From an uncultured Mycoplasmatota bacterium (GTDB lineage Bacteria > Bacillota_I > Bacilli_A > RF39 > UBA660), in NCBI GenBank assembly GCA_946402735.1, contig CAMIXH010000001.1, positions 5,983 to 69,982 of the forward strand: DNA of 64,000 bases, given 5' to 3'. Position 1 is the first letter of the stretch; each line of letters starts with the position of its first letter. The position numbers were made by a program, and so were the translations under genes. Shown in pieces: positions 42,817 to 64,000 of the stretch. Under the pieces are notes generated by a model. It made no database searches. It was not told the origin of the DNA and saw only the letters and a list, made by a program, of their open reading frames with translations.

Positions 42817-42858
42817 TTTTTATTTGAAAAATAAAGAAAAAAATAATTTTAAGGAAAT

Positions 42859-43013: not shown

Positions 43014-43039
43014 TAATCCACTAAGAACCACAGAAAGAG

Positions 43040-43234
43040 GTGAATATAATAGTGTATGAAGGCAAATTAAGGATACCTATAAGATTAAAAAATAGAATTG
43101 AAATGTTGGCTAAAGAACGAAGAATCAGTTTTAATAAAATGGTTAATATTATTTTAGAATTAGGAATTTATGAACTATTAGAAGAGGAGGCAGAATATGG
43201 AAAAATTAAGCATAAGCAAGTTAATAGCAAATGA
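43040..43234 (+). CDS. Ribbon-helix-helix protein
   Basis: LRIP..LK.RI..LA....ISFN..V..IL Arc/CopG-like pattern. Confidence 0.65.
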   Translation: MNIIVYEGKLRIPIRLKNRIEMLAKERRISFNKMVNIILELGIYELLEEEAEYGKIKHKQVNSK

Positions 43235-43613
43235 TGTAGTTAATTATGGAATGGATAAAACAACTAGTTTTAATTACATAGTTAGCTTAAACGATTTTCT
43301 AGATGATTATGATGAAGATACATGCAGTTATATAAAATCTCATATTAATGACATAATTGAAGCAGTTCATCAAAATGAAAATGTAGCTCAATTAGATTAT
43401 GATGAAAAAAGGCAAGAATTTGATATGGTGTTCTTTTTTGATAATTTAATGAGTCCACTTGAAAAAAGAATAATGGACACAGGAAAGAATATGGGAATTG
43501 ACTATGAATTAGATGATGTTAGATCTATTTCATATGATATTGAAAATTCTGATGAATATGATGATTTAATAACTAGCTCAATTAAGAATCATGATCTTGG
43601 AAGAGAAATGTAG
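43197..43613 (+). CDS. Hypothetical acidic protein
   Basis: RBS GGAGG; 138 aa ORF. Confidence 0.6.
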   Translation: MEKLSISKLIANDVVNYGMDKTTSFNYIVSLNDFLDDYDEDTCSYIKSHINDIIEAVHQNENVAQLDYDEKRQEFDMVFFFDNLMSPLEKRIMDTGKNMGIDYELDDVRSISYDIENSDEYDDLITSSIKNHDLGREM

Positions 43614-43621
43614 GTGATGTT

Positions 43622-43939
43622 ATGGTAAAACCTCATATTTCTATTTCAGAAGATTTAAAAAGTAGATTAGATGTTTATTGTAAAGAGAATAACTTTCAAT
43701 GTTTTTCTCATGGAGTTATTGATTTATTAGAAAAGGCATTAAGTCAAAATAAATTAGATAGAGTATTGGATAATATATTAAATTCAGTTGATAGATTAAA
43801 TTCAAGATCTAGTTATACTAGAGATTTACTAGAACAGTTATATTCAAATCTTGAAATTGAAACAGAGACTAATCCTAAAAATAATAAGTCATTACAAAAA
43901 TTTAAGAATAAATATATAAAGGATAAATTCAATGACTAG
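43622..43939 (+). CDS. RHH relaxosome accessory protein
   Basis: HISISEDLKSRLD.Y...FS..V..LL; overlaps the relaxase start. Confidence 0.55.
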   Translation: MVKPHISISEDLKSRLDVYCKENNFQCFSHGVIDLLEKALSQNKLDRVLDNILNSVDRLNSRSSYTRDLLEQLYSNLEIETETNPKNNKSLQKFKNKYIKDKFND

Positions 43940-45227: not shown

Positions 45228-45244
45228 TATAATTGGTGATTAAT

Positions 45245-46615: not shown

Positions 46616-46892
46616 TCAAAAGAAATTATCACCAGAACAAGAACAAATTACAAAAAAAGTTGTAGATGGATTAACAAATGATTCATCTGAAGAATTAATT
46701 AATCTAATGAAAGAGTGTAATATTAGTGATGGAGTTATAATGCTTACAATGTTAGGAATTGGAACACATACTGAATATTATAAAGTTCTTTATAATCGAA
46801 TAAACAATAATAAGGATAAAATGAATGATGATTTATTAAAAAAAGAAGTTGTTGATATATTACATGAAATAGATAGAAATGAAGATGAATAA
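46608..46892 (+). CDS. Hypothetical protein
   Basis: Overlaps the upstream stop; AAGGA RBS. Confidence 0.55.
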   Translation: MNNQKKLSPEQEQITKKVVDGLTNDSSEELINLMKECNISDGVIMLTMLGIGTHTEYYKVLYNRINNNKDKMNDDLLKKEVVDILHEIDRNEDE

Positions 46893-46921
46893 CATCTTCT
46901 TTTTTTGTGAAAGGAGGATAT

Positions 46922-48904: not shown

Positions 48905-48967
48905 GGATAGTCGATGAGATTATCCTCTTTTTTTATGTTATAATATATTATGAGAGTAGGTGTTATT

Positions 48968-50434
48968 ATGGCTAAAGGTCCACGATTAAATAATATATCT
49001 AGAAATTTTACTACGAGAGATAGTTTGGGAATAGAAGGCGTAGCTACATCGATATCTGCTGAAATATGTCCAATAGTAAATACAGTTACACCTAGACCAT
49101 TTTATTGGGCTTTTATTACTTGGTGTTATTATGACTTCTATAATAATTGTGAGCCTAAAGATAGAAGCTCTGATAATGTATATAAATATGTTAAAATGCA
49201 GAATTATTTTTTAGCATTAGCCAGTGATATTAATAACACTGATGTTTCAAATGGATTCACAGGTGCAGACACTATTCGTTCGAGAGTAGATTTAAATCAA
49301 GATTTATTTTCATATGATGATAAGTACTTGGTTACTGTATTAAGTAATATGGGATATTATCCAGCTGGATTATATACAATGGGATTTATTACGGATGTAG
49401 ATCCTGAAACAATGGATAAGTTTAAATATCCACATTTAACTCCTGAAGGTAAGAAACTAGCCGAAGCGTTCGATAATATAATTAGTACCACAAGATATTA
49501 TAAAGAATATAGAAGAAAAGTTACTGATATACCAAGAGATGTATTAATAGAACTAAATAACCAAATTAATATAAATTTAGATGGTTTTGATGATGTTAAA
49601 AAAATTCTTATAGAACATTTATTTAATAAAGAGAGTCAAAAAAAATTGATTGAGTCTCATAACTATTTAAAGTTTATTTTTAAAGAATATAAACCTGAGA
49701 ATATGAATACTGCTAAATGTAGAGAATTATTTTACGACTATTTTTCTCCATATTCAGATAATAAGTATAGATATCCTGAAGAGTTAAAAGAAATTATTGA
49801 TAGTTGGGAAATTGTCGTAGGAAGACAATATTTTACTTCTGGATTAGAAATGATATGGAAATATATGTTAGAAAACTTAAATAGTCCTAAGCTATATAAA
49901 GAATGGTTTAATGATTGTTTAAATAATTCTAAAATTGATTTTGAATTAACAGATAAACTTAGTTCAATTATTTCTTCATGCAATTATTCGTTTTCCGAAA
50001 GGGAAAACATGATAGCAGATGCTAGAAGTAGAAGTAGTAATCACGAATTAAATATTGCAAATGGTATTAAGATAATTTTATCTGTATATAATAGATTTTA
50101 TAATAGAAACGATTTCTCTAAAGATTGTAAAAATTATTATAATTATGGAATGGATAACAATTCTATTTCACTAAATGAATATTTTAAACTCGTAGAAGAA
50201 TATAAAGATAAACCAATAGAAGAATTTATTAAGTATATAATGTATCACTATTTATTAAATCAACATTTGAATACTGCATTTGAAAAAATGTTACAAGGTA
50301 GAGATGGATACTATATAGAAAAAATAGAAAATGAATATTCAAGAAAAGAATATTTTGATTTAGACTTTCAAGGGATTAGAATGGTTCAATTAGCTATGGT
50401 AATGCAAGATTTAAATGTATTGGAGGTTGAGTAA
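48968..50434 (+). CDS. Hypothetical protein, probable defence-system partner of the PLD nuclease
   Basis: N-terminal RDSLG....ICP..NTVTPRPFY..F motif; stop lies 2 nt before the PLD gene start. Confidence 0.55.
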   Translation: MAKGPRLNNISRNFTTRDSLGIEGVATSISAEICPIVNTVTPRPFYWAFITWCYYDFYNNCEPKDRSSDNVYKYVKMQNYFLALASDINNTDVSNGFTGADTIRSRVDLNQDLFSYDDKYLVTVLSNMGYYPAGLYTMGFITDVDPETMDKFKYPHLTPEGKKLAEAFDNIISTTRYYKEYRRKVTDIPRDVLIELNNQININLDGFDDVKKILIEHLFNKESQKKLIESHNYLKFIFKEYKPENMNTAKCRELFYDYFSPYSDNKYRYPEELKEIIDSWEIVVGRQYFTSGLEMIWKYMLENLNSPKLYKEWFNDCLNNSKIDFELTDKLSSIISSCNYSFSERENMIADARSRSSNHELNIANGIKIILSVYNRFYNRNDFSKDCKNYYNYGMDNNSISLNEYFKLVEEYKDKPIEEFIKYIMYHYLLNQHLNTAFEKMLQGRDGYYIEKIENEYSRKEYFDLDFQGIRMVQLAMVMQDLNVLEVE

Positions 50435-50435
50435 T

Positions 50436-52973
50436 ATGTTTGATAGAAGAATAGTGGAAGAAATATCAAATAGTAAAGGTTATTCAATTGCTCTATTAAC
50501 AACATTTAATTTTGAAATTAGCTATTTTGAAAGAGCAGTTTTAAATGCGTTATATGATAAAAATATTAAGAATATTGAATTATTTGTAGATGCAGATGAA
50601 CTTGAAAAAGCAGTATCAGAAAGTATAGATAATAATTTAAATAAAAAATATATTGCTAATCCAATTAGAATTAATTCAGCATTTCATCCTAAAGTTGTTT
50701 TATTATTTGGAGAAGAAAAAGCTAAATTAATTGTGGCTAGTGCAAATATTAAAACATCTGGATATACACTTAATAATGAAGTTTATAATGTATTTGAATA
50801 TAATAAAGATTATCAAGATAATTTAAATTTAATTAATGATGCAATTAGTTTCTTTGAAAGATTAAATAGTATGTCTTATTATCAAGATGAAAAGATATTT
50901 AATAGAATTAATGATTTGATTTATAGACACAGAAGAATAGATAATAATGATGTTAAATTAATTCAAAACTTAGATAAATCAGTTTTAGAGCAATTAAAAG
51001 AAATTATTACAGATAAAGTAGAATCAATTGATATTGCTGTTCCATACTATGACAATGAATTATTAGGATATAAAGATTTATCAGAAACATTTGATTGCAA
51101 AAATATTAACTTATATTTGCAAAACGGATTAAGTACATTCCCAGTAGATTATAATATTAATAATGGGATTGTGAATGCAGATAATATATATACATATTTG
51201 AAACTTAAAAGTAATGGTAAGAAAAACTTTTATCATGGAAAAGTGTTTAGAATTAATACAAATAATAAATCATTCATTCTATATGGTAGTTCTAACTGTA
51301 CTATGAGTGCTTTATCAAAAACATATCATAATGGTGGTAATATTGAATGTAATATTCTAGAGGAAGGAATTAAGTCTGATTTTGATTATTTCTTTGATAA
51401 CTTTGAGATTGAATCATTTGATGAACTAACTTGCAATATTATTGAATATGAGCCACAGGAAAAGAAAAATTTCAGTTTTAAATATGGGATAAAGAAAGAT
51501 GAAGTAAAACTATATCTATCATACAAAGATAAGAAAGATAATATTAAGATTCAAATAGGAGAAAAAGAATTATCGTATGAATATTATGAAAATGAACTAG
51601 TAATATTATTAGATAAACTAACATCTGACGAAATTAATAATATTTTTGATTTAAAAATAACAGTTGGAGATAATCAAGAGTTTATTAGGTGTTGGTATTT
51701 TGATATTGATACTATAGAAAATTATAGAAATGCTGAGAGAACATCATCTTTTGAAGATATTAATGTTGATGAAGATATGGAAAAATATCGTGAACATATG
51801 GAATTAATTGTAAGAACATTAGCTTTAACTAAAGATGAATATTCAGAACAAATGAAGTTACAAAAAATGCTAAATAAAAAATCTAATTTAGAGAATCAAG
51901 AAGATTTAGATGAAGATGAGATAGATGATAACTTTATTATTGATAAAGATATACCAGATGAATATATAAGAAAAAATAAAGATTTTACAAATGCATATAT
52001 TAAATCTAGATTATTCTCAGATCGTTTCTTTAAAGGTTTAAAACTAAAAGGAAGTAGTAGTGGTTCTTCTTCAATTCATACAGATAATAAACCAAGTGAA
52101 AGTGAAAAAAAGAAAAGACCAGCTACACCTGCAGAAAAAAGATTTGAAAGATTTATTAAGAGTAGAGTAAAAGGAATACTTAGAGATGAGTATATAGAAC
52201 TTGTAGATTATGAACATTATAAAAATAGTATTGGAGTTATTCTTGATGTAATTAATGAATACAAATATAAAGAACAAGTTGAAGATATATTTGAAGATAA
52301 GTATGTAATAGAAATATCATTAGATTTAATTAATAGACTTCTAGAAAAGGAATCAATGAATCATGAACAAGATGAAAAAGATACAACGATTATTCTTACA
52401 TTTATAGCAGTTATAGAAAATCATATGTTAAATAATTCTGAAGAAAATAAAGATTATAAAGTTGAGTTGCTAAATAAGGAAATTATAAAACAACTTAATC
52501 AATTATTTAATATTAGAGAGAGTTTTGAAGAATTATTAGAATATGCAGTTAATAATATAAATCAAAAAATTGGAAATATAGATTATGATACTGCTAAAAA
52601 CTATATTGAATCTTTATTTGGATATAGAACTAATGAACAATTACTAGATGTTATTAAACATGAATATGGAGAAGATTCTAAAATTGAGATTAACGATAAT
52701 AATGTTAAAATAGAAACATCAACTGATAATATCACTAAATATTTAAAATTAAATGATCTCCCAATTATAGAAATAAGAAAATACTATAAAAACAATAATG
52801 CCAGATTAGATAATATAAATATAATAATTAAAAATCTAAAAAATGATTATCCAAGTACTGCTGATCCAATAAATATTCTAGAATATATTCTTAATGAAGA
52901 AACTAGAAAATATTATCAAAAAATTACAAGAAAATCCGGAATAGAAGACAAAATAAAAGAAATCAAGATTTAA
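50436..52973 (+). CDS. Phospholipase D-family nuclease-like protein
   Basis: LLTTFNF, FHPKV...ASANI...NNE and YHGKV...YGSSNCT...NIE: two HxK half-sites. Confidence 0.75.
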   Translation: MFDRRIVEEISNSKGYSIALLTTFNFEISYFERAVLNALYDKNIKNIELFVDADELEKAVSESIDNNLNKKYIANPIRINSAFHPKVVLLFGEEKAKLIVASANIKTSGYTLNNEVYNVFEYNKDYQDNLNLINDAISFFERLNSMSYYQDEKIFNRINDLIYRHRRIDNNDVKLIQNLDKSVLEQLKEIITDKVESIDIAVPYYDNELLGYKDLSETFDCKNINLYLQNGLSTFPVDYNINNGIVNADNIYTYLKLKSNGKKNFYHGKVFRINTNNKSFILYGSSNCTMSALSKTYHNGGNIECNILEEGIKSDFDYFFDNFEIESFDELTCNIIEYEPQEKKNFSFKYGIKKDEVKLYLSYKDKKDNIKIQIGEKELSYEYYENELVILLDKLTSDEINNIFDLKITVGDNQEFIRCWYFDIDTIENYRNAERTSSFEDINVDEDMEKYREHMELIVRTLALTKDEYSEQMKLQKMLNKKSNLENQEDLDEDEIDDNFIIDKDIPDEYIRKNKDFTNAYIKSRLFSDRFFKGLKLKGSSSGSSSIHTDNKPSESEKKKRPATPAEKRFERFIKSRVKGILRDEYIELVDYEHYKNSIGVILDVINEYKYKEQVEDIFEDKYVIEISLDLINRLLEKESMNHEQDEKDTTIILTFIAVIENHMLNNSEENKDYKVELLNKEIIKQLNQLFNIRESFEELLEYAVNNINQKIGNIDYDTAKNYIESLFGYRTNEQLLDVIKHEYGEDSKIEINDNNVKIETSTDNITKYLKLNDLPIIEIRKYYKNNNARLDNINIIIKNLKNDYPSTADPINILEYILNEETRKYYQKITRKSGIEDKIKEIKI

Positions 52974-53006
52974 TAGAAGATAAATAAAATTATCTTCTTT
53001 TTTTTG

Positions 53007-53025
53007 TTTATAACAAACACGAAAG
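53007..53025 (+). repeat. 19-bp direct repeat/operator, copy 1
   Basis: TTTATAACAAACACGAAAG identical to 57381-57399. Confidence 0.85.
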
Positions 53026-53057
53026 ATTTTATGGTATAATATTTCAGGAGGGATACT

Positions 53058-53276
53058 ATGATTTCTAAATTAATATATTTATATCACAAGAAAAATAGAT
53101 ATCTTCAATCTTATATACAAGATTTAATTGCTGACAAAACTGACTTTGAACCTCATAAAATAAAACTTGAAATATCATCAAAAGAAAATAATTCTCAAGA
53201 GTTTAACCACTTTATTTTTAGCTATAATGGATTGAGATATGATTTACTTGATGATGAATTAAAAATAATAGGATAA
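53058..53276 (+). CDS. Small hypothetical protein
   Basis: TGGTATAAT promoter and AGGAGG RBS upstream. Confidence 0.55.
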   Translation: MISKLIYLYHKKNRYLQSYIQDLIADKTDFEPHKIKLEISSKENNSQEFNHFIFSYNGLRYDLLDDELKIIG

Positions 53277-53419
53277 AGAACAATTAAATTTGTTCTTTTT
53301 TCTTTCGTAATTGTACAAAAAATTGACATTTTTATGTTATAATTATAAATGAGTGAAAATATGAGGTAGTTATAAATTATAGTTTACCTTTTAATTCATT
53401 TAATGGGGAGGAAAAATTA

Positions 53420-54217
53420 ATGGGTAGCAATATTTATAGTAGTAAAAATAAGTTGAACGATTTAACTGGTTCTGAATGGAAGTTTTCAACTAAATCAGTT
53501 ATTAATAAAGCATATCCAATAAATATGCAACATAAATTAAGATCTCAACATGGAGGACAAAAACCACCACAATTATGTGAAGATATTATAAAAATCTTTA
53601 CTAAAAAAGGTATGATAGTTTTAGATCCATTCATGGGTGTCGGTGGTTCCTTATTAGGAGCTTCATTATGTGATAGAAAGGCTATAGGAATTGATATCAC
53701 TGAAAAATGGATAGATATTTATAAACAAGTATCGGAACTAGAGAAACTAGAAATTCAGCAAACATATTGTGGCGATTCATTTAAAGTTTTGAATAAAATC
53801 GAAGATGAAAGTGTTGATTTCATTTTAACCGATGTTCCTTATTGGAATATGGATGCATTAGAAAAAACAAGAAACAAAACAGTAAAACAATCTAAACTGA
53901 ACAATTTTGAAAATAACTCTGAAGGTCAATCAAAAAAAGATTGGCTAAATAATATGAAAAAGATATTAGGAAAAGCATCTAAAAAACTTAAAAAAGGCAA
54001 ATATATGGCAGTTTTTATAGGAGATATGTATAGAGATAGTGAATATCATTGTTTATCAGGAGAACTTGCATTGAAATTGTCAGAAATTGATGGATTAACA
54101 ATGAAGGCAAATTTAATTTGGGAGGATAATAGCAAGTCATTACATGTCTTTGGGTATCCAGCTGCATATGTTCCATCAATGATTCATCAAAATATTTTAA
54201 TATTTAGGAGGGATTAA
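53420..54217 (+). CDS. DNA amino-methyltransferase (N4-C/N6-A)
   Basis: VLDPFMGVGG (motif I) precedes TDVPYW (motif IV-like). Confidence 0.85.
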   Translation: MGSNIYSSKNKLNDLTGSEWKFSTKSVINKAYPINMQHKLRSQHGGQKPPQLCEDIIKIFTKKGMIVLDPFMGVGGSLLGASLCDRKAIGIDITEKWIDIYKQVSELEKLEIQQTYCGDSFKVLNKIEDESVDFILTDVPYWNMDALEKTRNKTVKQSKLNNFENNSEGQSKKDWLNNMKKILGKASKKLKKGKYMAVFIGDMYRDSEYHCLSGELALKLSEIDGLTMKANLIWEDNSKSLHVFGYPAAYVPSMIHQNILIFRRD

Positions 54218-54218
54218 T

Positions 54219-56018
54219 ATGAGATTAAAAAGCAAATACAATTTCAAAAAATTTGATTTAAATGTTAAAAATAAATTTATTGTATATGGAGATAATCTTG
54301 AAGAGTCTACTCAAATTATTAAATGGCTTTATGATTTCAATTCCGATAGAATGAAATTTATTGGAATGGAATATGCATCTTTATCTGAATATATATACAA
54401 ATATTCAATAAATAATGAAATGTATTATTTTGTAGCAAAAGCATATTATAGAAATGGAAAATTACCTTATGATGTAAGACATGTTATTAAGGAATTAGAT
54501 AAACCAGATGCAGTTATATATTCAGAAGATGATGAAAAAGTTTTAATGGGATTCGAAACTACATCTACTACTATGGCAGGTAATGCAACATGGCAGAGAA
54601 CAGGAAGAATTATCAATTTCTTAGAAATGGGAATTCCTTTTGGATTTTTAGCTTATTTTAGCAAAAATGACAAGTCTGATACTAATGTAAATAAAAAGCC
54701 GAGAATTCCAGGTGCATTATTTGTGCTATTATTTAATTTACTTTCTTTAAAATATCACACACCTGCATTAGTTGGATTCTTTGAACACCCAGATAAAGCA
54801 CAAAATAGAGATGCACTAAATCCAAATGATGATTGGAGAGAAGCAATCTTCAAATATTTATTATCATTAATATTAAAAGAAAATGGAGAAGAACACTTAG
54901 AAAAATGTTATTCAAATATGAAGAATTATTATTTTAGTTCTGACAAAATAAAATCAACATTAAGTGAATTTGGTTCAACAACACTTGATTACATGAAAGA
55001 TAGTAATTTTTCAAAAAATATTATTGATGACATGAAGAATAAGAATAATGTTCCATTTTATGATAAAAGTAAATTATTATTTGATTGGACACCAAAAAAG
55101 ATTACTGAAAAAGTTCACGAACTATTTCCCAATATTAAGTTTTATCAAATATCAAAAAATTGCAAAGCAGGAATAACATTTCAAACAGAAGAATTAATAG
55201 ATATATTAAATAAAAATAAAAAGGTATATGTAGAAGATAACTTTAAAAATATACATGCACCTACTGTTGTAATACCAATAAAATTAACAAAACTTGATAA
55301 TAAGACAGGAAATATTGTTCCGACAGATGATCCATACAATGGTGAAATTCCAGCTTTTGCAAATCTATATTTACAATCATTTCCTAATGCAAATGTAATG
55401 TTATTGTTGTGTGATCATACTAATAAAAATGAATATAATGTTGAAGGAGCTAAAGGAAGAAAAGTATATAAATCAATTGATAAATATGCTGACGTTGTTG
55501 CAGATATGGATCTTAATTTATTTAGTAGAGAATCCGAAGGCTCAAGAATTGAAAACAAGAGTAAATATGAAAATCAATTTACAACAGAAGATGATGTTAC
55601 TTCTTTCTTTGGAACTGTTTTATTGAATGAAGGAATTGTTCCATCATTTATTAATCCACCTTGTGGAAGTTGGTCTGATATTCATTTATATCCTACAGAT
55701 AAATACTATTATTATAATAGAAATGATGATAGGGGAGATATTGCATTCTTTGATCCAGATGATGAAACATATTACTTTGGTGAAAGTAAAAAAGACTATA
55801 GAACATTAGCATTAACAATGGAAGAAGAGTATAGAAAGACAATGAATTTATCGCAAATTGTTTTAAACGAATTGGATAATAAGTATCAAACAAGATTATT
55901 TGCAATTTTTAAAGGGAATAAAGATGAAGCTAAAAAAGTATTAGATAATTCTAAGTTTGATTTTGTTGTAACAGTAGATGATACTGATGAAGTTACTCTA
56001 GAGGTCGTAGAAAGATAA
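54219..56018 (+). CDS. Putative restriction endonuclease
   Basis: Lies between two MTases; PDAVI...FETT and GDIAF...GESKK PD-(D/E)xK-like motifs. Confidence 0.6.
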   Translation: MRLKSKYNFKKFDLNVKNKFIVYGDNLEESTQIIKWLYDFNSDRMKFIGMEYASLSEYIYKYSINNEMYYFVAKAYYRNGKLPYDVRHVIKELDKPDAVIYSEDDEKVLMGFETTSTTMAGNATWQRTGRIINFLEMGIPFGFLAYFSKNDKSDTNVNKKPRIPGALFVLLFNLLSLKYHTPALVGFFEHPDKAQNRDALNPNDDWREAIFKYLLSLILKENGEEHLEKCYSNMKNYYFSSDKIKSTLSEFGSTTLDYMKDSNFSKNIIDDMKNKNNVPFYDKSKLLFDWTPKKITEKVHELFPNIKFYQISKNCKAGITFQTEELIDILNKNKKVYVEDNFKNIHAPTVVIPIKLTKLDNKTGNIVPTDDPYNGEIPAFANLYLQSFPNANVMLLLCDHTNKNEYNVEGAKGRKVYKSIDKYADVVADMDLNLFSRESEGSRIENKSKYENQFTTEDDVTSFFGTVLLNEGIVPSFINPPCGSWSDIHLYPTDKYYYYNRNDDRGDIAFFDPDDETYYFGESKKDYRTLALTMEEEYRKTMNLSQIVLNELDNKYQTRLFAIFKGNKDEAKKVLDNSKFDFVVTVDDTDEVTLEVVER

Positions 56019-57040
56019 TGAAATATATAGGGAATAAAACCAGAGTTATTGATTTCATAGAGCAATCATTAAAAGATGCTAATATAGACTACTCAAATAA
56101 GACAGTTATAGATTTATTTGCTGGAACAGGAAGTGTTAGTTCATTCTTTTTAGAAAACAAATCAACAGTTTATTCTTGTGATAATATGTTTTACAGTATT
56201 TGCGAGCAATATAGAACTAATTATTATACAGAAGAGCCAACTTTCGAAGAGTTAAAAGAACTTATAGATGATATATCTTTAGATGGAGTCTTAGAATATT
56301 TAAATAATGTTAAACCCAAAAAAGGTTATTTCTTTAATAATTATGCACCAGATGGAAGTGAACATAGACAATATTTTTCAAATGAGAATGCAATGAAATT
56401 AGATGCAATTCGAGAAAAAATTAGCAAATGGGAAAAATTTTTGCCTTATGAAAAAAAATGTTTCTTGCTTGGCATACTAATGTGTGCAGCTGATAGAGTT
56501 TCAAACACATCTGGAACATACGGAGCATATTTAAAAATATGGAGATCAATGGCTCTTAAGGATTTAATACTAGAAAAGCCAAAGTTTTATAAGCATCAAT
56601 TTAACTATATCGAATTGGATGATGTATTGAATTGTGTTTCCAAACACAAAAATGTAGATATCATATATATGGATCCACCATATAACAAAAGACAATATGC
56701 AAGTAATTTTCATGTTTTAGAAAATATTGTTGTATATGATAAGCAAGAATTGAAAGGCAAAACTGGATTAAGAGAATATACTAATCAAAAATCTGATTAT
56801 TGCATCAAAAATAAAGTAAAAAAATCATTTGAAGAATTGGTTAATAACATGGATGCAAATGTTCTTGTAATGAGTTATAGCACCGAAGGGTTGTTATCTG
56901 AAAAAGAAATACTAGAAGTCTTAGAAAAAAAAGGAAAGACAACGGTATATAGATATGATTATAGGCGTTTTAAAACAAATGCTTGGACAGAAGGAAATAC
57001 GAGTTTACAAGAGTTGTTATTTATATGCAAAATAAAATAG
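56018..57040 (+). CDS. DNA adenine methyltransferase (D12 class)
   Basis: MKYIGNK, DLFAGTGSVS, YMDPPYN.RQY. Confidence 0.9.
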   Translation: MKYIGNKTRVIDFIEQSLKDANIDYSNKTVIDLFAGTGSVSSFFLENKSTVYSCDNMFYSICEQYRTNYYTEEPTFEELKELIDDISLDGVLEYLNNVKPKKGYFFNNYAPDGSEHRQYFSNENAMKLDAIREKISKWEKFLPYEKKCFLLGILMCAADRVSNTSGTYGAYLKIWRSMALKDLILEKPKFYKHQFNYIELDDVLNCVSKHKNVDIIYMDPPYNKRQYASNFHVLENIVVYDKQELKGKTGLREYTNQKSDYCIKNKVKKSFEELVNNMDANVLVMSYSTEGLLSEKEILEVLEKKGKTTVYRYDYRRFKTNAWTEGNTSLQELLFICKIK

Positions 57041-57049
57041 GATTTAATC

Positions 57050-57322
57050 CTATTTTTTTTCATCTATCCTAGAATAATTTGTAATATGTTCTTTATTATA
57101 TGTAAGTAAAAGTGTTGCTGTAACTTTAGAATTGTGATCAAATTTATTAATATTACTTGCAAATTTATCTACGGTTGCTAAACGAACATTTACCTTTAAA
57201 TTTTCAATTTGATTTAAATACGAAAGTGATGTACCTAGTATCTCTGCAAATTTTTCTTGAGATAAGTTATGCTTCATTCTATAATATCTCAAATTAATAG
57301 CTAAAATCTCAATCAATTTCAT
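57050..57322 (-). CDS. XRE/C-protein-like HTH regulator
   Basis: LAINLRYYR...LSQEKFAEILG.S.SYLNQIEN. Confidence 0.85.
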   Translation of the reverse strand: MKLIEILAINLRYYRMKHNLSQEKFAEILGTSLSYLNQIENLKVNVRLATVDKFASNINKFDHNSKVTATLLLTYNKEHITNYSRIDEKK

Positions 57323-57355
57323 AATCTTACCTCCTTATTTGTTATACAAATTTAT

Positions 57356-57399
57356 TTTATAGAAACACGAAAGGAATGTCTTTATAACAAACACGAAAG
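57356..57399 (+). repeat. Tandem operator-like repeats, copies 2 and 3
   Basis: TTTATAGAAACACGAAAG and TTTATAACAAACACGAAAG upstream of the divergent HTH gene. Confidence 0.8.
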
Positions 57400-57519
57400 G
57401 AAATGAGTATAATACTATTTACAAATTAGATTAAATAGTCTATTATATGTATGTAATAAAAGTTCAACTTCATACTTATATTTTTTTACAAATAATGTTG
57501 AATCATTAGAGGTGGAATT

Positions 57520-57831
57520 ATGGATATAGATACATTGATTGATATGCTTAAAGATTATTGTAGGGATTCCAACAAAAGTGATGATAAAGAAATATTTAAT
57601 TCATATCAACAACAATATTTAAATGGTTATGCAGGTGTCATCATTAATAGTATTGATGATAAATTTGAAATATATACATATATAAAAAATAAAGATAAGA
57701 TTGCAAGTCCATTATTATTATGGAAGACTGATTCAGAAGAAAAGGCAAATAATTATTATAATAGATTAGTTGAGATAATAAAGTCTCAAGATTATAATGT
57801 TTTAATTGGTTTTTGTAAATCAGGTCTTTAA
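57520..57831 (+). CDS. Hypothetical protein
   Basis: GAGGTGG RBS; 103 aa ORF. Confidence 0.55.
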   Translation: MDIDTLIDMLKDYCRDSNKSDDKEIFNSYQQQYLNGYAGVIINSIDDKFEIYTYIKNKDKIASPLLLWKTDSEEKANNYYNRLVEIIKSQDYNVLIGFCKSGL

Positions 57832-57836
57832 TTAGG

Positions 57837-57891
57837 GTACGGAAAAAGTACGGAAAAGGTACGGTAAAGGTACGGAAAAAGTACGGAAAAG
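57837..57891 (+). repeat. Five tandem 11-bp repeats GTACGG(A/T)AAA(A/G)
   Basis: Units start at 57837, 57848, 57859, 57870 and 57881. Confidence 0.95.
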
Positions 57892-58216
57892 GAATATTGC
57901 TTTTTCATTTCAATATGGTAGAATGTAGTAAAGTGAATAATTATGAATTAAATAATTATTCATTTTTTGTTGCTTTATTATTGCTTTTTCAAAAAAAAGT
58001 GATATTATAGATAACAATTAGTGATTTTGTAGGGATGAAGGTGGTTTATATGAGAATCATTCAACTCGGATTTTCACAATTATCGTTAGTCAACTTGATA
58101 AGTAAATATAAGGACTCATACCCTAAAAAATTAGATTTAAATGAATATAAGAAGAGCAGTATCAATTCTTAACGGATTTTCTGCTCTTCTTTTATTTATA
58201 ATAAGGGAGGTTTTGA

Positions 58217-58648
58217 ATGAAATTATTAAGTACAGAAGTAATAGACAAATATGATTACTTAAAAACAAATCAAAAAGTAAAAGAATATATGTCTAAATTT
58301 GAAGATGATTATTACAGATATGTAAGTATACTTCCACCTAGTATATCTTCGCACTTGAGTGAAATTAAAGTTCAATCAAGTTTTAGTAATACATCATCAA
58401 TTGAAACATATGTAATTAAGAAAACTGAAAAGGAGGAAAAGTTTCTTCAAACATTAGATAAGATTCTAAGAGTTTTAGATTCATTTAATCAAGAAGAGCA
58501 AAGGTATTTTAAAGGAGTATTCTTTTTAGGAAATTCAGAACCAGTAATATCTGAAGAATTGCAATGTGCAGATAAAAAGATTAGACACATTAAAAAAAGT
58601 AGTATTATAAAATTTGCTCTAGCAATGGATCTAGCAATATTAAAATAA
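58217..58648 (+). CDS. ArpU/RinA-family transcriptional activator
   Basis: KT..KV...; C-terminal sigma4-like HTH; IKK.SIIKFA.AM. Confidence 0.7.
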   Translation: MKLLSTEVIDKYDYLKTNQKVKEYMSKFEDDYYRYVSILPPSISSHLSEIKVQSSFSNTSSIETYVIKKTEKEEKFLQTLDKILRVLDSFNQEEQRYFKGVFFLGNSEPVISEELQCADKKIRHIKKSSIIKFALAMDLAILK

Positions 58649-58720
58649 ATTAAGATAAACTTAATAATTTCATTATGCACCTTAACGGGTGTTTTTTTAT
58701 GGAAAAATTTAGGAGGTTTT

Positions 58721-58864
58721 ATGTTAGGAAAAATTTTAGGAATTATCTTTTTAATACTTATAGGAGTATTTGCTGTGTGTTCATGTAAGGTTGCTTCATG
58801 GGCAGATCAAGAAATGGAAGAAGATTTGAGAAAGAGGAAACAAAATGAGAAGAAAAACATATAG
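58721..58864 (+). CDS. Small membrane protein (47 aa, absent from the ORF track)
   Basis: AGGAGG RBS; MLGKILGIIFLILIGVFAVCSCKVASWADQEME... Confidence 0.55.
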   Translation: MLGKILGIIFLILIGVFAVCSCKVASWADQEMEEDLRKRKQNEKKNI

Positions 58865-59048
58865 AGCAACTATTATTAATAGTGGGCATACTTCAGTTAT
58901 GCTTGTTGGAGGATACAATAAACCATCAGTTAAGAAACAATTAACTGATTTTTTTATTAAAACTAATCAAATTAAAGACTATACAAAATTTGAAATCTAT
59001 TTAAAACAAGTTGTTTATATAGATGGTAATTATGTGGAGGTTGAATAA
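58845..59048 (+). CDS. Small hypothetical protein
   Basis: 67 aa ORF in the operon leading to the recombinase. Confidence 0.55.
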   Translation: MRRKTYRATIINSGHTSVMLVGGYNKPSVKKQLTDFFIKTNQIKDYTKFEIYLKQVVYIDGNYVEVE

Positions 59049-59050
59049 AC

Positions 59051-59227
59051 ATGGATGATATTAAAACATTTGAATTGGATGCTAAAACACAAGATTTTGT
59101 AGATTTAAATATAATAATAGCTTTATTTAAATCATTTGTTAGAGACAAAGTAATTACGAATAAGGAATGTGATTCACTAATTGAATATGTGAAACGCACC
59201 ATGATATTAGAAGAAGAAATAATATAA
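59051..59227 (+). CDS. Small protein (58 aa), candidate recombination directionality factor
   Basis: GGAGG RBS; MDDIKTFELD...; immediately upstream of the serine recombinase. Confidence 0.5.
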   Translation: MDDIKTFELDAKTQDFVDLNIIIALFKSFVRDKVITNKECDSLIEYVKRTMILEEEII

Positions 59228-59254
59228 ACTTTTGATTAGAAAGGAACGAGTAAT

Positions 59255-60973
59255 ATGGGAAGAAAGGTAGCAATTTATGCAAGAGTATCTACTGAACATG
59301 AAGCTCAGATAAATGCATTAGAAAATCAAATTCAGTATTATGATAATAAATTAAGTGAACATCCCGATTGGGAATTATATGATAGATATATAGATGAAGG
59401 AATAACAGGAACTTCTGTTAATAAAAGAAAGAATTTTATGAGAATGCTTAAGGATGCAGAAAAGGGCTGCTTTGATTTAATTATTACTCGTGAAGTATCT
59501 CGATTTGCAAGAAATACAGTTGATACTTTACTTGAAACGAGAAAGTTAAAAAGAATGGGAGTTGAAGTTTATTTTACAGAAGATAATATTTGGACTTTTA
59601 AAGATGAAGATGGCGAATTAAAATTAACTTTAATGGCAACACTTGCTCAAAATGAAAGTAAAAAAACATCAATGAGAGTAAAAGCAGGGCAAAAAATTTC
59701 GTTCCAAAATGGTGTATATTATGGTAGTGGAAATATTATGGGATATGATCGTGTCGGAAAAGATGCTGTAGTCAATGAAGATCAAGCTAAAATTGTAAGA
59801 TTAATATTTCAATTATTTTTAGAAGGTAAGGGTGTAACTAAGATAAAATATGAACTTGAACAAAGAGGAATCCCAACTGCCACAGGTTTGAAAGTTTGGA
59901 ATGTTGCAACTATTTCAAGAATGCTTCAAAATTCATTTTACTGTGGAACAGTAGTTTATAATAAAGAATTTACTGCAGATTATTTAGAACAAAAGAAAAG
60001 AAAGAATCATGGTGAAGTAGAACAAACAATAGTTGAAGGAAAACATGTTCCAATTATTTCAAAAGAAGATTTTGAAGCTGTTCAAAAATTAATAAAAAAA
60101 CACTCAATATATTTAGAAGATGGCATAAGGAAAAAATTGATAGGTTCACCTAGAAATATATGGTCTCAAAAACTAATATGCCATTGTGGTTCTAGATTCA
60201 ATAGAAGAGTCTATAGTGGAGCAGGTACAGATCATCAATTATATTCTTATTATTGCTATAAGCAAAAAAATGAAGGCTCTGCTAGAAAAAGAAAAGAGCT
60301 TGGACTTGATTATGAAGGATTTTGCGATGTAGTACAAATTAATGAATGGAAACTAGAATTAATGTTTAGTGTTTTACTAAAAAATCTTATCAAAAATAAA
60401 GATAAATTAAGAACTATTGCAAAAACTGCAATTGAAAGTAGTGCATTAGCTGAAACAGTTAATAATGAAATACTTAATGAAATAAAAGAAATAAATATTA
60501 AATTAACAACAAATAAATCCAGGTTAGATAAATTATTGAATGCATATCTAGATAATATGCTTACAAATGAAGAGTACTCTTCTAAAAGAAAAGAATTAGA
60601 AGATACAATTATTACATTAGAAAATAGACTTAAAGAATTAGAAGAAAATTCTAAAAATCAATCTATATCAGTAAAAGATAAAATAAATATCTTAAAACAA
60701 AAAGTAGATATGTTATTGGATATTGATACAAATGAAATAAGTGATGTATTAATAGATTCAATAGTAGATAAAATTACAGTTCATAATGATAGATATGAAT
60801 GGAAAATAAATTATATCAGTTCATCATCTGAAGAAAATGACGAGAATAATAATGGTGTATTCTTTGCTAGAATGATAATAACAGTTGATGAAATAAAAAG
60901 ATATAATGATAAAAAAAAGATATTAAAGAAGGTGTTTCAAAAAGATCCAATAGTTATGGATATATATATTTAA
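59255..60973 (+). CDS. Large serine recombinase (ICE integrase)
   Basis: YARVST, DEGITGT, REVSRFARN, recombinase domain, Zn ribbon (ICHCG...YYC) and coiled coil. Confidence 0.95.
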   Translation: MGRKVAIYARVSTEHEAQINALENQIQYYDNKLSEHPDWELYDRYIDEGITGTSVNKRKNFMRMLKDAEKGCFDLIITREVSRFARNTVDTLLETRKLKRMGVEVYFTEDNIWTFKDEDGELKLTLMATLAQNESKKTSMRVKAGQKISFQNGVYYGSGNIMGYDRVGKDAVVNEDQAKIVRLIFQLFLEGKGVTKIKYELEQRGIPTATGLKVWNVATISRMLQNSFYCGTVVYNKEFTADYLEQKKRKNHGEVEQTIVEGKHVPIISKEDFEAVQKLIKKHSIYLEDGIRKKLIGSPRNIWSQKLICHCGSRFNRRVYSGAGTDHQLYSYYCYKQKNEGSARKRKELGLDYEGFCDVVQINEWKLELMFSVLLKNLIKNKDKLRTIAKTAIESSALAETVNNEILNEIKEINIKLTTNKSRLDKLLNAYLDNMLTNEEYSSKRKELEDTIITLENRLKELEENSKNQSISVKDKINILKQKVDMLLDIDTNEISDVLIDSIVDKITVHNDRYEWKINYISSSSEENDENNNGVFFARMIITVDEIKRYNDKKKILKKVFQKDPIVMDIYI

Positions 60974-61043
60974 AGATGTTATAATTAAAGTGACATATTT
61001 GATAGAATTTATTTTTTTGATATTAATTTTTTGAAAAAATAGC

Positions 61044-61103
61044 TTCTTTACAATTCCAATTATTTACGCAGCACAAGCTGCAATTAAAGCAAAAAAGAAC
61101 TAA
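61044..61103 (+). other. attR of the ICE plus displaced ppdK tail (QAAIKAKKN*)
   Basis: GCACAAGCTGC core; the in-frame ppdK-like tail ends at TAA 61101-61103. Confidence 0.85.
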
Positions 61104-61114
61104 TATAATCAATT

Positions 61115-61142
61115 AAAAGACTAGGTGAAACTAGTCTTTTTT
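61115..61142 (+). terminator. Cassette terminator 1
   Basis: AAAAGACTAG-gtgaaa-CTAGTCTTTT plus T-tract. Confidence 0.85.
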
Positions 61143-61237
61143 GCTTACACATAAAACATTATGTTTTAAAAAAAGAGTAATGTAAAAATGTTAAATTTGT
61201 AATATAATGTAATTATAATGATTTTGGAGGAATAAAT

Positions 61238-61663
61238 ATGGAAAGAAAAATAGTTCTATTATTATTAGTTTTTGCAACTTTATTTATTATAACTGGATGT
61301 AAAAAGAAAAAAGATAATTCTGAAGGTGTAGATAGCATTAAAATTGTTTCAAATATTGAATTAGGAAAAAAACAATATATTGAACAGCTTAAAAAAGTAT
61401 CGATAGATGGTACTGACGATTATTTAATTATTACAAAAAAAATCAAATGGGAAGTGCCAGAACATGAAGACGGAGCAACAGTTAGTTTTGCGATTAATAT
61501 ACCATATACATTACACGTTGATGGTAAAGATTATAGTGCTCAATATTGTTTAAATGATTGTTACGGTCAAAATCAAGGTGTTGATGGTAACCCAAAATAT
61601 GTTTTTGAAATTACTAATTTAACAAGTAATTATGAAACTGAGATATTAGTAAATAAAAAATAG
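61238..61663 (+). CDS. Lipoprotein (cassette 1)
   Basis: Lipobox ITGC after a hydrophobic signal; GGAGG RBS. Confidence 0.8.
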   Translation: MERKIVLLLLVFATLFIITGCKKKKDNSEGVDSIKIVSNIELGKKQYIEQLKKVSIDGTDDYLIITKKIKWEVPEHEDGATVSFAINIPYTLHVDGKDYSAQYCLNDCYGQNQGVDGNPKYVFEITNLTSNYETEILVNKK

Positions 61664-61808
61664 TAGAAAATATATTGAGTTTGATAAATAGAATAAACAA
61701 ATCATTTTAGTTTTATTAATGCCGAAATATATTTAGGTATATACAACTGTAATAGAAGGAATGCTTAAAGTGTAAAAAAGTACTAAAAACAGTATAAATT
61801 TCACCATC

Positions 61809-61903
61809 CCGAATGGAGCAGTTGTACAAGCTGCAATCAAAGCAAAGAATAATTAGTTTAGTATTTAAAGACTAGATTTTTCTAGTTTTTTTTATGGTAT
61901 AAT
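61809..61903 (+). repeat. Cassette junction 2: CCGAA-N12-ppdK tail (QAAIKAKNN*)-terminator-TGnTATAAT
   Basis: Direct alignment with junctions 3 and 4. Confidence 0.85.
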
Positions 61904-61920
61904 TGACTTAGGTGGAAACT

Positions 61921-62487
61921 ATGAAAGACTTGTTTGATGTAATTCCTGTTTTAGATAATGGTAATATATGTCTAAAAAAAGTGACAATTAGTGATTTAGA
62001 GAGTATCAAAGACATGTTACTTTGTACTGATGTATATCGTTATGTTCCACCATTTGTACCAGAATTACAATGTAATGGGAATATAGAATATTTTATAAAT
62101 ACTATGTGTAAAAAATTATTCGATAAAAAAGTTGCAATTATACTTGGAATATATTCAAAATACTATAATGATCAACTTTGCGGACTATTTGAATTATATC
62201 ATTATATTTCTGATGAAATGAAAGTATCAATTGGATATCGATTGAATAAAAAATTTTGGAATAAAGGAATTGCTACTGAAGCTACTTCATTAATTATAAA
62301 TTATTTATTTAATCAAACTGATATTACCACGATATCTTCAAGCAATATGGTTGATAATCCAGCTTCAGGTAGAGTCTTAGAAAAAAATGGTTTTTTTAGA
62401 ATAGAAGAAGCTATATTAGAAGAATGGGGTTTTTCTCAAAAAGTTTATGTCGATAAATGGATACTTAAGAAAACAAAATTAAAATAA
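61921..62487 (+). CDS. GNAT N-acetyltransferase, RimJ/RimL type (cassette 2)
   Basis: IGYRLNKKFWNKGIATEA, NPASGRVLEKNGF. Confidence 0.9.
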   Translation: MKDLFDVIPVLDNGNICLKKVTISDLESIKDMLLCTDVYRYVPPFVPELQCNGNIEYFINTMCKKLFDKKVAIILGIYSKYYNDQLCGLFELYHYISDEMKVSIGYRLNKKFWNKGIATEATSLIINYLFNQTDITTISSSNMVDNPASGRVLEKNGFFRIEEAILEEWGFSQKVYVDKWILKKTKLK

Positions 62488-62611
62488 TCATTTTAGTTTT
62501 GTTCATTCCGAATGGGTACATGCTACAAGCTGCAATAAAGGCAGGAAGTAATAAATAGTAAAAAATGTAATTAAGACTAGATGACTAATCTGGTCTTTTT
62601 TATGATATAAT
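62488..62611 (+). repeat. Cassette junction 3: TCATTTTAG-N11-CCGAA-N12-ppdK tail (QAAIKAGSNK*)-terminator-TGnTATAAT
   Basis: Starts immediately after the GNAT stop codon. Confidence 0.88.
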
Positions 62612-62641
62612 ATAACACAACTAATTGAAAAGGTGATTTGT

Positions 62642-63217
62642 ATGGAATTATATCAAATAGACAATGAAATTAAGAATTGTAACTTATGTGGCTGCATGGT
62701 TGAAAAATTTAATAATGATGCAACGGTTTCTATTGGTAAAAAATCCGATATTGTAATATTAGGGGAGGCACCTGCAAATAATGGATGGAGAAAAAGCGGA
62801 ATTGCATGGCATGACGAAAATCATAAATTGTTGCCATCTGGAGTTGTTTTAGAAAGATTATTGAAATTAATTAATTATTCATTGAAAGATATATATTTTT
62901 TAGAAGCAATTAAATGTTATCCAAAGAGTAGAAAGTATTTAAAAGAGTGTAGTAATAATTGTAGAAAGTATTTGTTAGAGCAATTGCTTATTATTGATCC
63001 TAAAATAATATTAACATTAGGAGACATTGCAACAAGAACATTGCTTGATATTAAATATTCAAAATTTGGCAATGTAGCGGGGAAATGTTTTAATTATGAA
63101 GGATATGATGTTATACCAATATATCATCCCAGTCCTATTTCACCATTAAGTTATGGTGGTAATGTAGAAATATTTGAAAATGTTATCAAAGAAAAAGTAA
63201 AAGCATTAACGAAGTAA
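62642..63217 (+). CDS. Uracil-DNA glycosylase family 4-like protein (cassette 3)
   Basis: CNLC, ILGEAPA, IKCYP, PKII.TLG, PIYHPSP. Confidence 0.85.
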   Translation: MELYQIDNEIKNCNLCGCMVEKFNNDATVSIGKKSDIVILGEAPANNGWRKSGIAWHDENHKLLPSGVVLERLLKLINYSLKDIYFLEAIKCYPKSRKYLKECSNNCRKYLLEQLLIIDPKIILTLGDIATRTLLDIKYSKFGNVAGKCFNYEGYDVIPIYHPSPISPLSYGGNVEIFENVIKEKVKALTK

Positions 63218-63224
63218 ACAATTG

Positions 63225-63344
63225 TCATTTTAGTCTATTTCGTCCCGAACCTCACATGGTGACAAGCTGCAATTAAAGCAAAGAAGGAAAATAAATAATA
63301 TTAATAGAGACTAGGTAAAACTAGTCTTTTTTTTATGATATAAT
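63225..63344 (+). repeat. Cassette junction 4: TCATTTTAG-N11-CCGAA-N12-ppdK tail (QAAIKAKKENK*)-terminator-TGnTATAAT
   Basis: Same spacing as junction 3. Confidence 0.88.
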
Positions 63345-63364
63345 TGATATAGGTTGGTGATAAT

Positions 63365-64000
63365 ATGAGAATAGCTATTTTTTCTGATATACACGGGAAT
63401 AAAGAAGCACTAAAATCAATTATTGATGATATCAATAACAATAATATTGATGAAATTATTTGTTTAGGGGATACAATTGGAATTGGTCCTAATCCTAAAG
63501 AATGTATGGATATGATAATAAGTAATAATATTAAAATGGTTTTAGGTAATCATGAATTATATTTTTTAAAAGGTACTGATATAGATGATGAAATGGGAGA
63601 AGGAGAAATAAAACACCAAAATTGGATAAAGAAACAAATTACAAATGATCAAAATGAATATTTAGAAAATTGTACCTTGTATATTGAAAAGATGATAAAT
63701 AATAAGAAAATACTATTTATACATTTTCCAATTGATTATAATTCCAAAGATGATTATCCATTTCACGATTTAAAAATAGCAAAAGATGGATCAATTAGAA
63801 ATGTAATTGAATCATTGGATTATGATTTGATATTTATAGGTCATGAACATAATAATTTTTGTATAGATAATAAATTATATGATGTTGGTTCTTCTGGATG
63901 TACAAAGGATAATACTACACTATATACAATAATAGATACCAATACATTTAATGTAGAAAGAAAAAGTATTAAGTACAATAGAAAACAATTTGAAGAAGAT
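63365..64000 (+). CDS. Calcineurin-like metallophosphoesterase (cassette 4), 3'-truncated by the window edge
   Basis: MRIAIFSDIHGN, CLGD.IG.GP.P.EC, LGNHE, GHEH; not in the ORF track. Confidence 0.88.
   Translation, partial: MRIAIFSDIHGNKEALKSIIDDINNNNIDEIICLGDTIGIGPNPKECMDMIISNNIKMVLGNHELYFLKGTDIDDEMGEGEIKHQNWIKKQITNDQNEYLENCTLYIEKMINNKKILFIHFPIDYNSKDDYPFHDLKIAKDGSIRNVIESLDYDLIFIGHEHNNFCIDNKLYDVGSSGCTKDNTTLYTIIDTNTFNVERKSIKYNRKQFEED

Follow-up and report, generated by a model that had tools for sequence, protein, structure and literature searches.

We present an analysis of a conserved motif, TCATTTTAG-N11-CCGAA-N12, which terminates small gene cassettes arrayed behind an integrative and conjugative element (ICE) at the 3' end of ppdK, the pyruvate phosphate dikinase gene, in a 64,000-nt stretch of DNA (the window) from an uncultured Mycoplasmatota bacterium (contig CAMIXH010000001.1 of assembly GCA_946402735.1; source assembly 1.28 Mb, 85% complete). 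The motif is probably the element-side (P-type) arm of recombinase-less cassettes that are stacked at the ppdK 3' end and mobilised by large serine recombinases (LSRs). The cassettes are built to one anatomy and have a crossover in common with LSR elements, their arms follow a positional consensus shared with the ICE and fall into types found on both kinds of unit, and cargo and arms are re-assorted among them. The core-proximal part of the arm (CC-N-A-A at -17 to -13, G at -5 and G at -2) would represent an LSR half-site. Positions are those of the window and 'C1:' marks coordinates on contig C1 of the source genome (G000); other G labels denote genomes, L labels fetched loci or metagenome contigs and c labels individual cassette units, and arm positions are numbered from the A of ACAAGC.

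Arm motif and positional consensus

Both fixed spacings reported by the initial annotation were recovered, each being judged by the number of matches against the expected count and by 100 shuffles. The first, TCATTTTAG-N11-CCGAA, stands at 61702, 62488 and 63225 (three matches with at most two mismatches, where 0.47 are expected; three are reached in 3 of 100 shuffles), and the second, CCGAA-N12-ACAAGCTGC, at 61809, 62508 and 63245, where the same tolerance yields four matches against 0.08 expected and none of the 100 shuffles reaches four. The fourth match is the attR of the ICE at 61056, CCAAT-N12-ACAAGCTGC, i.e. CCAATTATTTACGCAGC-ACAAGCTGC; the statement that this attR lacks the motif holds for the exact words, but CC-A-A is present in the ICE arm with an unchanged spacing. 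When one mismatch is allowed, the pattern is confined, across all 1.28 Mb of the genome, to the three cassette junctions. The motif had also been placed 0–7 nt after the cargo stop in units 2 and 3, and the box centred on TCATTTTAG indeed starts 0 nt past the stop in unit 2 and 7 nt past it in unit 3; in unit 1 it starts 38 nt past the stop.

Species-representative genomes and metagenomes were scanned with the pattern TCATTTTAG-N11-CC-N15-ACAAGCYGC. The genomes returned 16 stretches (14 with a ppdK tail and two unrelated), from records titled as rumen and gut 'Bacilli', 'Erysipelotrichaceae' and 'Bacillales' metagenome-assembled genomes, and the metagenomes returned 67; pooled, the two scans gave 63 unique 46-mers, 58 of them followed by the ppdK tail. 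By genome, the core pattern is present in 13 of 50 members of the genus and the box-to-core pattern in 9 of 401 members of an order sample. The third letter of CCGAA in the 58 short arms is T in 29, A and G in 14 each and C in one, and the word is therefore CCNAA, its G not being conserved. The intervening sequence, previously described as free, is constrained in both N11 and N12: the letters T10, C11, T12, T16, C17, A24, A25, C31, T32, G36 and T37, all outside the search pattern, each recur in 43–56 of the 58 arms (T10, C11, T12, T16 and C17 in 52–56 each, C31 in 45, G36 in 48 and T37 in 43). Short-arm families include those marked by CTTGCCTATAGT, TGAGACTGTGGC, CCTCACATGGTG and CATTTACGCAGT, among others.

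A set of arms gathered independently of the motif was obtained from 160 unique junctions by setting aside 62 of the seed type and 13 ppdK arms, and four of the remaining 85, in which the right side does not start with a core-like hexamer, were removed to leave 81. CC occupies -17/-16 in 45 of these 81 unselected arms, and none of twelve shifted positions has it in more than 26; the informative columns are C-17 (63 arms), C-16 (53), A-14 (53), A-13 (52), G-5 (60) and G-2 (51). Five of these six positions (C-17, C-16, A-14, G-5 and G-2) are occupied in the ICE arm TTTACAATTCCAATTATTTACGCAGC. The pair CC..AA at a fixed 12 nt from the core can be regarded as a conserved feature and, on this alignment, is best read as a protein contact. 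The spacing between TCATTTTAG and CCGAA is fixed in one arm family only, and neither word is found at junctions C1:70096 and C1:71428, the next two of the array.

Arm types are not partitioned between LSR elements and cassettes. Near-ICE arms stand on single-gene cassettes at L076:3048, where TCATTTTAG precedes TCAATGTCATTTACAATTCCAATTATTTACGCAGT, and at L075:6192; single-gene cassettes in L133 and L152 carry the ICE-type N12, CATTTACGCAGT; and the LSR-bearing element in L126/L093, whose LSR is split into open reading frames (ORFs) of 141 and 403 aa followed by one further ORF, ends in a 37-nt arm with a box. With a shared consensus and shared arm types on both LSR elements and cassettes, the cassette ends do not appear to be a different kind of site. 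The suggestion that the motif implies another recombinase than that of the ICE is not upheld, since the ICE arm fits the same positional consensus and ICE-like arms end single-gene cassettes; the observation itself is confirmed, and a different recombinase is unsupported at the core and possible for the box only.

Two other origins of the arm were considered and rejected. Derivation from the part of ppdK that precedes the crossover (TCCATTTAG against TCATTTTAG) found no favour in a comparison of 55 arms with three ppdK genes, the homologous offset not being among the best-scoring. As for CCN-AAY being Pro-Asn codons in the frame of the tail, that frame is open in many arms but offers no start and is broken by stops in several families, the CCTCACATGGTG arms having a TGA stop in the tail frame.

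The ppdK site and its cassette array

The repeat ACAAGCTGC(A/T)AT.AA.GC... is the 3' end of ppdK, with the in-frame reading ...QAAIKAK..stop, and its copies at 28867, 61073, 61826, 62525, 63262, C1:70096 and C1:71428 bound the units as direct repeats (Table 1). The ICE joins ppdK at 28867, its left end now supplying the final codons of the gene, and ends at 61073 directly after the LSR gene. Its Pfam content comprises a type IV secretion system ATPase, a coupling protein, a relaxase, methylases and a sortase/SpaA adhesin. The LSR, the only one found in G000, has the SPbeta and TP901-1 integrases as its PDB matches. Centred on the CA of A-CA-A, the rebuilt attP of the ICE is imperfectly palindromic, with 16 of 26 mirrored positions complementary, a level reached by 0.2% of random pairs (mean 7.9, sd 2.4). 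The rebuilt circles of the cassettes score 6, 5, 8, 13 and 7 of 26, in agreement with the initial annotation, which had seen no such dyad symmetry in them.

Table 1 Features of the ppdK locus and cassette array (window positions).
Feature	Position	Strand	Content and basis
Xer-type tyrosine recombinase	24701..25594	+	Upstream of tdk and ppdK; outside the system in the reading favoured here
ppdK (pyruvate phosphate dikinase, 898 aa)	26210..28906	+	Target gene; Pfam PPDK_N, PEP-utilizers, PEP-utilizers_C
attL core ACAAGCTGCTAT	28867..28878	+	Lies between the ppdK (B) arm (left) and the P' arm of the ICE (right); empty-site contig L131
ICE	28869..61074	+	32,206 bp core to core; Pfam, unit length, attP dyad symmetry
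LSR of the ICE, 572 aa	59255..60973	+	Pfam Resolvase and Recombinase
ICE P arm TTTACAATTCCAATTATTTACGCAGC	61047..61072	+	CCAAT at 61056-61060, 12 nt ahead of the core
Cassette 1	61073..61825	+	ppdK-tail copy; terminator 61113-61140; lipoprotein ORF 61238-61663
Cassette 1, right end			Box 61702-61710; 'long arm' of 115 nt, containing CCGAA at 61722 and 61809
Cassette 2	61826..62524	+	Tail; terminator; TTTATGGTATAAT (61891-61903); GNAT ORF 61912-62487
Cassette 2, right end			Box 62488-62496; N11; CCGAA 62508-62512; N12 62513-62524
Cassette 3	62525..63261	+	Tail with GGAA at +19; terminator 62573-62597; TTTATGATATAAT (62599-62611)
Cassette 3, right end			Uracil-DNA-glycosylase-family ORF 62633-63217; box 63225-63233; CCGAA 63245-63249; N12 63250-63261
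Cassette 4	63262..64000 (leaves the window)	+	Tail; terminator 63306-63329; TTTATGATATAAT (63332-63344); metallophosphoesterase ORF from 63365

The metagenome contig L131 is 99.1% identical to 28658-28884 and, onward from the same core, to 61068-61714. By its sequence it is an empty site with ppdK joined straight to cassette 1, and the ICE is therefore a single 32,206-bp insertion. The order in L131 is ppdK, the lipoprotein cassette and then a 211-aa cassette that is the fifth in G000, so that the window differs from it by the presence of the ICE and three more cassettes and by a different arm. Such differences between 99%-identical strains indicate turnover that is fast relative to point mutation. 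Other LSR elements ending at the same core were found in G003, G062, L086, L088, L120, L126 and L132, and the recombinases found inside elements at the ppdK site are LSRs only.

Besides the one LSR, the recombinases found in G000 are encoded by two Xer-like genes, an integrase gene on a contig of 3.3 kb and the gene of a small resolvase, which is interrupted by an in-frame TAG; the small contigs C13 (4.3 kb) and C14 (3.4 kb) carry a TAG-interrupted resolvase-type serine recombinase and a 426-aa tyrosine integrase. Within the ICE, two DNA methyltransferase genes (N6_N4_Mtase and D12 class) surround a 599-aa ORF without Pfam hits at 53420-57040, probably a restriction-modification module. A far shorter element in G033 (L039; G033:C2, 2554-8772) is likewise headed by the left-end sequence of the ICE (the P' arm and ~100 nt), and in G062 this sequence lies directly behind the right arm of another LSR element (L035; G062:C34, 5779-5900), from which it follows that elements insert into attR-type junctions too.

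Each cassette consists of a spare ppdK tail, a terminator followed by an extended -10 word, one or two ORFs, the 17-nt box and an arm. The units are free of recombinase genes and their cargo comprises lipoprotein, GNAT, uracil-DNA-glycosylase-family, metallophosphoesterase and NUDIX proteins. Across the collection 87 unique core-to-core units were delimited (median 1017 bp; 71 below 1.6 kb), of which just 8 same-cassette clusters could be formed, most metagenome contigs being short. The terminator stem AAGACTAG..CTAGTCTT gives three terminator-like sites against 0.5 expected. A sigma-70 consensus scan (30 sites against 29 expected) is uninformative in A+T-rich DNA, and the extended -10 word TTTATGNTATAAT behind the head terminator was therefore used instead; it occurs seven times in the window against 0.19 expected, three of them in cassettes. 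Judged by this consensus match, each cassette head would carry its own promoter. Among 128 unique right sides the tail has AA at +19/+20 in 90 and GG(AA) in 20, and the latter class, to which cassette 3 belongs (62525-62556), mirrors the CC of the arms as the P' arm of the ICE does.

Cassette 4 ends at C1:70095 in an arm without the motif, and the array continues beyond the window through the junctions C1:70096 and C1:71428. Further down the island a junction word, CGGAAGATTAAGATAT, stands before small hairpins between lipoprotein-type genes (L155:3499-3514, 4278-4293 and 4871-4886, at C1 ~73.5-74.9 kb; three matches against 0.03 expected) and forms a separate repeat family without a ppdK tail. 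Other units there (L155:6180-6760 and 11410-11440, at C1 ~76.2-81.4 kb) are bounded solely by the AAGACTAG..CTAGTCTT terminator and the TGNTATAAT promoter and lack arm, core and tail alike. A GNAT gene among them is related to one in G061 that stands between full cores and whose arm measures 4 nt (L031:3970).

The box, re-assortment and competing explanations

The word TCATTTTAG is the centre of a 17-nt box, ATAAGTCATTTTAGTCT, with flanks that are conserved over 86 unique sites (A-5 in 68, T-4 in 60, A-3 in 69, A-2 in 79, G-1 in 68, T+9 in 84 and C+10 in 74). The box always lies just past the last ORF, 30–125 nt away from the core. Short arms place it at 37 nt and the ICE-type arm at 44 nt; arms with an inserted short palindrome have it at 50-52 and 60-64 nt, and cassette 1, with its long arm, at about 123-125 nt. 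The 12-nt spacing of CCNAA is kept in several of the longer arms, e.g. L091:6390 and L126:8067. The box is a separate module at the boundary of cargo and arm. It is also present 7-10 nt past the LSR stop in the group of ~540-aa LSRs (L062, L086, L088 and L120, with a remnant in L085), and is absent from the 572-aa group (the window ICE and G003:C25) and likewise from more distant LSRs at other sites. Elsewhere in the window the box is not significantly enriched (four matches at up to three mismatches against 1.63 expected), a box-like match at 28998 being the ascending arm of the terminator at the left end of the ICE. TAGTCTT is common to the box (62488-62500, 63225-63240) and to the cassette terminators in their descending arm (61113-61140, 62573-62597 and 63306-63329), and the reverse complement of the box agrees at 11 of 13 positions with the terminator at the left end of the ICE (28998-29035) in its ascending arm and loop; the resemblance could be due to chance, common origin or alternative pairing.

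Cargo and arm are exchanged across this boundary. Cassette units c020 and c060 are identical at 607 of 633 positions from core to box and then carry unrelated arms of 28 and 51 nt, and cassette 1 matches its copy in L131 at 634 of 638 positions up to the box, followed by the 115-nt long arm in the window and a 28-nt short arm in L131; a contig of public run X4 has the same short-arm form in place of the stretch between 61711 and 61825. When records at least 85% identical over the 100 nt preceding the box were grouped, six of ten cargo clusters carried arms below 60% identity that diverge right past the box, and one cargo end turned up with three different arms, of which one is ICE-type and one the common short arm. 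Another break point is the core: c017 and c042 agree at 1023 of 1028 positions, identical arms included, and their upstream neighbours at 20 of 42. In runs X1 and X7, loose ends of single contigs have different arms ahead of the cores at 61826 and 62525, weak cases that may come from relatives. The long arm of cassette 1 (61711-61825) recurs in at least 8 other contexts; its first part (CC[G/A]AA, ~16 nt, ACAACTGTAAT) resembles a short arm followed by a decayed core, and the long arm may be two arms fused. Re-pairing of cargo and arm is most simply explained by deletions between box copies within one array, and no enzyme for it was found among the G000 recombinases or the 24 downstream ORFs.

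Taken with the arm consensus, a route of movement can be proposed. The crossover is the CA in GC-A-CA-AGCTGC, common to the ICE LSR, the related LSR elements and the cassettes. As the left tail is gene-like and the circles are without dyad symmetry, each cassette junction would be attR-like. By the simplest route, an upstream LSR element could then excise by recombining its attL with a distal cassette junction in the role of attR; cassettes would be carried along in cis by accretion and later left behind when the LSR element excises alone, and deletions between repeated boxes and between repeated heads would re-pair cargo with arms. As a speculative extension, in which we place little confidence, the cassettes might be two-part devices, a cargo body (tail to box) joined to an exchangeable adapter arm that addresses one serine recombinase, with the box as an active second joint, either bound by a protein of the element or the host or a recombination site in its own right. 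If this were true, bodies would be re-fitted with arms at the box, one gene pool would be open to many LSR elements, and the whole would amount to integron-like gene capture with re-addressable cassettes, run by serine recombinases.

Several observations weigh against mobilisation of the cassettes by LSRs. The arms were compared as unique sequences from related organisms and are not independent. CC is missing from -17/-16 in 36 of the 81 arms, which form several families, and in a genus set fetched by the core alone (23 unique non-ppdK arms, including one at an unrelated gene, L027) just 3 have the exact full motif, 5 its relaxed form, 6 CCGAA-N12 and 11 CCNA[AGT]-N12; at L031:3970 the arm is reduced to 4 nt. 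The ICE arm agrees with the cassette arms of the window at 12, 12, 7, 11 and 9 of 26 positions (7.6 on average at random, sd 2.3), so the resident LSR may not act on the window cassettes, and no other LSR was found in the 85%-complete G000. The cassette circles are not attP-like, and four public runs, as assembled contigs only, yielded no excision product or circle junction. Shuffling at the core is equally explicable by homologous recombination between the ~100-nt heads. The variable distance from box to core makes a role of the box in the synapse unlikely. Joints in public contigs that appeared to skip ahead or go back were rejected as excision products or circles, being similar heads of different cassettes joined with extra letters or short sides.

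Some of these points would fit a fossil array, in which past LSR insertions no longer undergo site-specific movement, the units are reshaped by homologous recombination between heads and by slippage at the 17-nt box, and the motif is kept by descent. The ~100-nt heads are long direct repeats, the break points fall exactly at the two repeated boxes, the window cassette arms show little likeness to the resident ICE arm (7-12 of 26) and no circles occur in the assembled public contigs. Yet the box, CC..AA, G-5 and G-2 are retained where the remainder of the arm has been replaced or has diverged, and the flanking non-coding spacer is 85-99% conserved within cargo lineages only, which together argue for selection on the arm; the turnover between 99%-identical strains, which differ by the ICE, three cassettes and an arm, is also at odds with a fossil. 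We consider this explanation unlikely. Somewhat less credit still is given to a second dedicated recombinase or DNA-binding protein that recognises TCATTTTAG, alone or jointly with CCGAA, so as to move or re-pair cassettes without an LSR. Such an enzyme would suit the box being the most conserved non-core element, its varying distance from the core, the cargo/arm pairs broken right past it in six of ten clusters and the circles without attP-like symmetry, but neither the 24 downstream ORFs nor the G000 recombinases offer a candidate gene, the box directly follows LSR genes too, and deletion from box to box accounts for the break points enzyme-free.

The candidates named by the initial annotation were the nearby Xer protein, the ICE serine integrase and a gene beyond the window; the serine integrase is favoured, and no recombinase family was found among the 24 ORFs in the 20 kb beyond the window. 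Insertion by the neighbouring Xer-type recombinase, as in Xer-exploiting elements, is very improbable. Its gene does lie 3.3 kb upstream of the site and the order xer-tdk-ppdK is syntenic in relatives; against this, it is one of exactly two Xer-like genes in G000, the usual XerC/XerD pair, the same gene order stands beside a native, unoccupied ppdK end in G061, G004 has a 68%-identical ortholog in that position, the break point falls on the crossover of the LSR, and the recombinases found inside elements at the site are all LSRs. Hardly any weight is given to an integron-like folded single-strand site, formed by box-core pairing or by an attC-like arm hairpin. Small G+C-rich palindromes do cover CCGAA in three window arms, e.g. 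CATTC-C-GAATG, but the commonest arms (CCTAA) break the palindrome, no nested covarying pairs exist in the 58 arms, and the arms fold no better than shuffles (z -0.37 and -0.10), the terminator alone being stable; a hairpin or attC-like structure was rejected on the latter two grounds.

Known systems and significance

Staphylococcal cassette chromosome (SCC) elements, including SCCmec and pseudo-SCC, insert by the LSRs CcrAB or CcrC at the 3' end of rlmH and restore the gene end, and their stacks include units without recombinase genes, of kilobases to tens of kilobases. The array described here likewise involves LSR insertion into the 3' end of a housekeeping gene and stacked recombinase-less units; we know of no miniature self-promoted cassettes or box-delimited arms described for SCC. 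A precedent is provided by the ssrA islands of Dehalococcoides, associated with DsiB, a CcrB-family serine recombinase, of which 15 are without an integration module and were proposed to be cis-mobilisable, SCC being cited there as the homologous system (PMC3146451). Those islands also stand in tandem downstream of a single-copy essential gene, are bounded by direct repeats of its 3' end and have a conserved motif just upstream of the repeat that does not match the gene itself (PMC3146451). Cis-mobilizable elements (CIMEs) have no integration or transfer genes, keep their att sites and are co-excised and transferred with a neighbouring ICE, with tandem accretion involving ICEs or integrative and mobilizable elements (IMEs), e.g. 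ICESt1/ICESt3 (PMC5704250). They are described as decayed ICEs or IMEs, mostly with tyrosine integrases (PMC5704250), whereas the 87 units here are uniform and compact and do not look like the outcome of random decay. In contrast to the ssrA islands, the target here is a protein gene, ppdK, the units are mostly of one gene (median ~1 kb), and there is a standard head (tail, terminator, promoter), a conserved box and many exchangeable arm families. On this comparison of sequences, tandem accretion at an LSR target, of the SCC, ssrA-island or CIME kind, appears to be the best reading.

Integrons capture small, mostly single-gene cassettes by means of IntI, attI and attC, with a recombination site right past each ORF. 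They resemble the present system in being arrays of small accessory-gene cassettes at one chromosomal site, but here there is no IntI and no attC hairpin, the site is a gene 3' end with serine recombinases as the associated enzymes, and the cassettes have putative promoters of their own by consensus match. The sole tyrosine recombinase near the site is the Xer-like gene and not an IntI-type integrase, and each head ends in TTTATGNTATAAT after the terminator, in contrast to promoterless integron cassettes. The attP and attB sites of LSRs (A118/LI, Bxb1, phiC31) have two base-specific blocks at fixed distances from a 2-bp crossover. The arms likewise have tolerant positions between their blocks and the ICE attP is an imperfect inverted repeat, while the cassette junctions, unlike canonical LSR attP sites, pair a P-type arm with a gene-tail side and yield circles without dyad symmetry.

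Serine-recombinase elements with recombinase-less units stacking at the 3' end of an essential gene are already described, but the combination of the ppdK target, one-gene self-promoted cassettes and the arm-plus-box design was not met with in the literature searched. The literature searched, with supplements outside the search, held no report linking pyruvate phosphate dikinase or ppdK with a serine recombinase, and nothing relevant on LSR gene cassettes in tandem arrays was among the titles listed. A second enzyme is unneeded at the core on this reading, which singles out the box as a separate element. For recombinase engineering, more than 100 natural arm variants at one crossover constitute a map of fixed (-17, -16, -14, -13, -5 and -2) against free half-site positions. 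For mobile-element biology, the array represents a way in which small-genome rumen and gut Bacilli may pool accessory genes.

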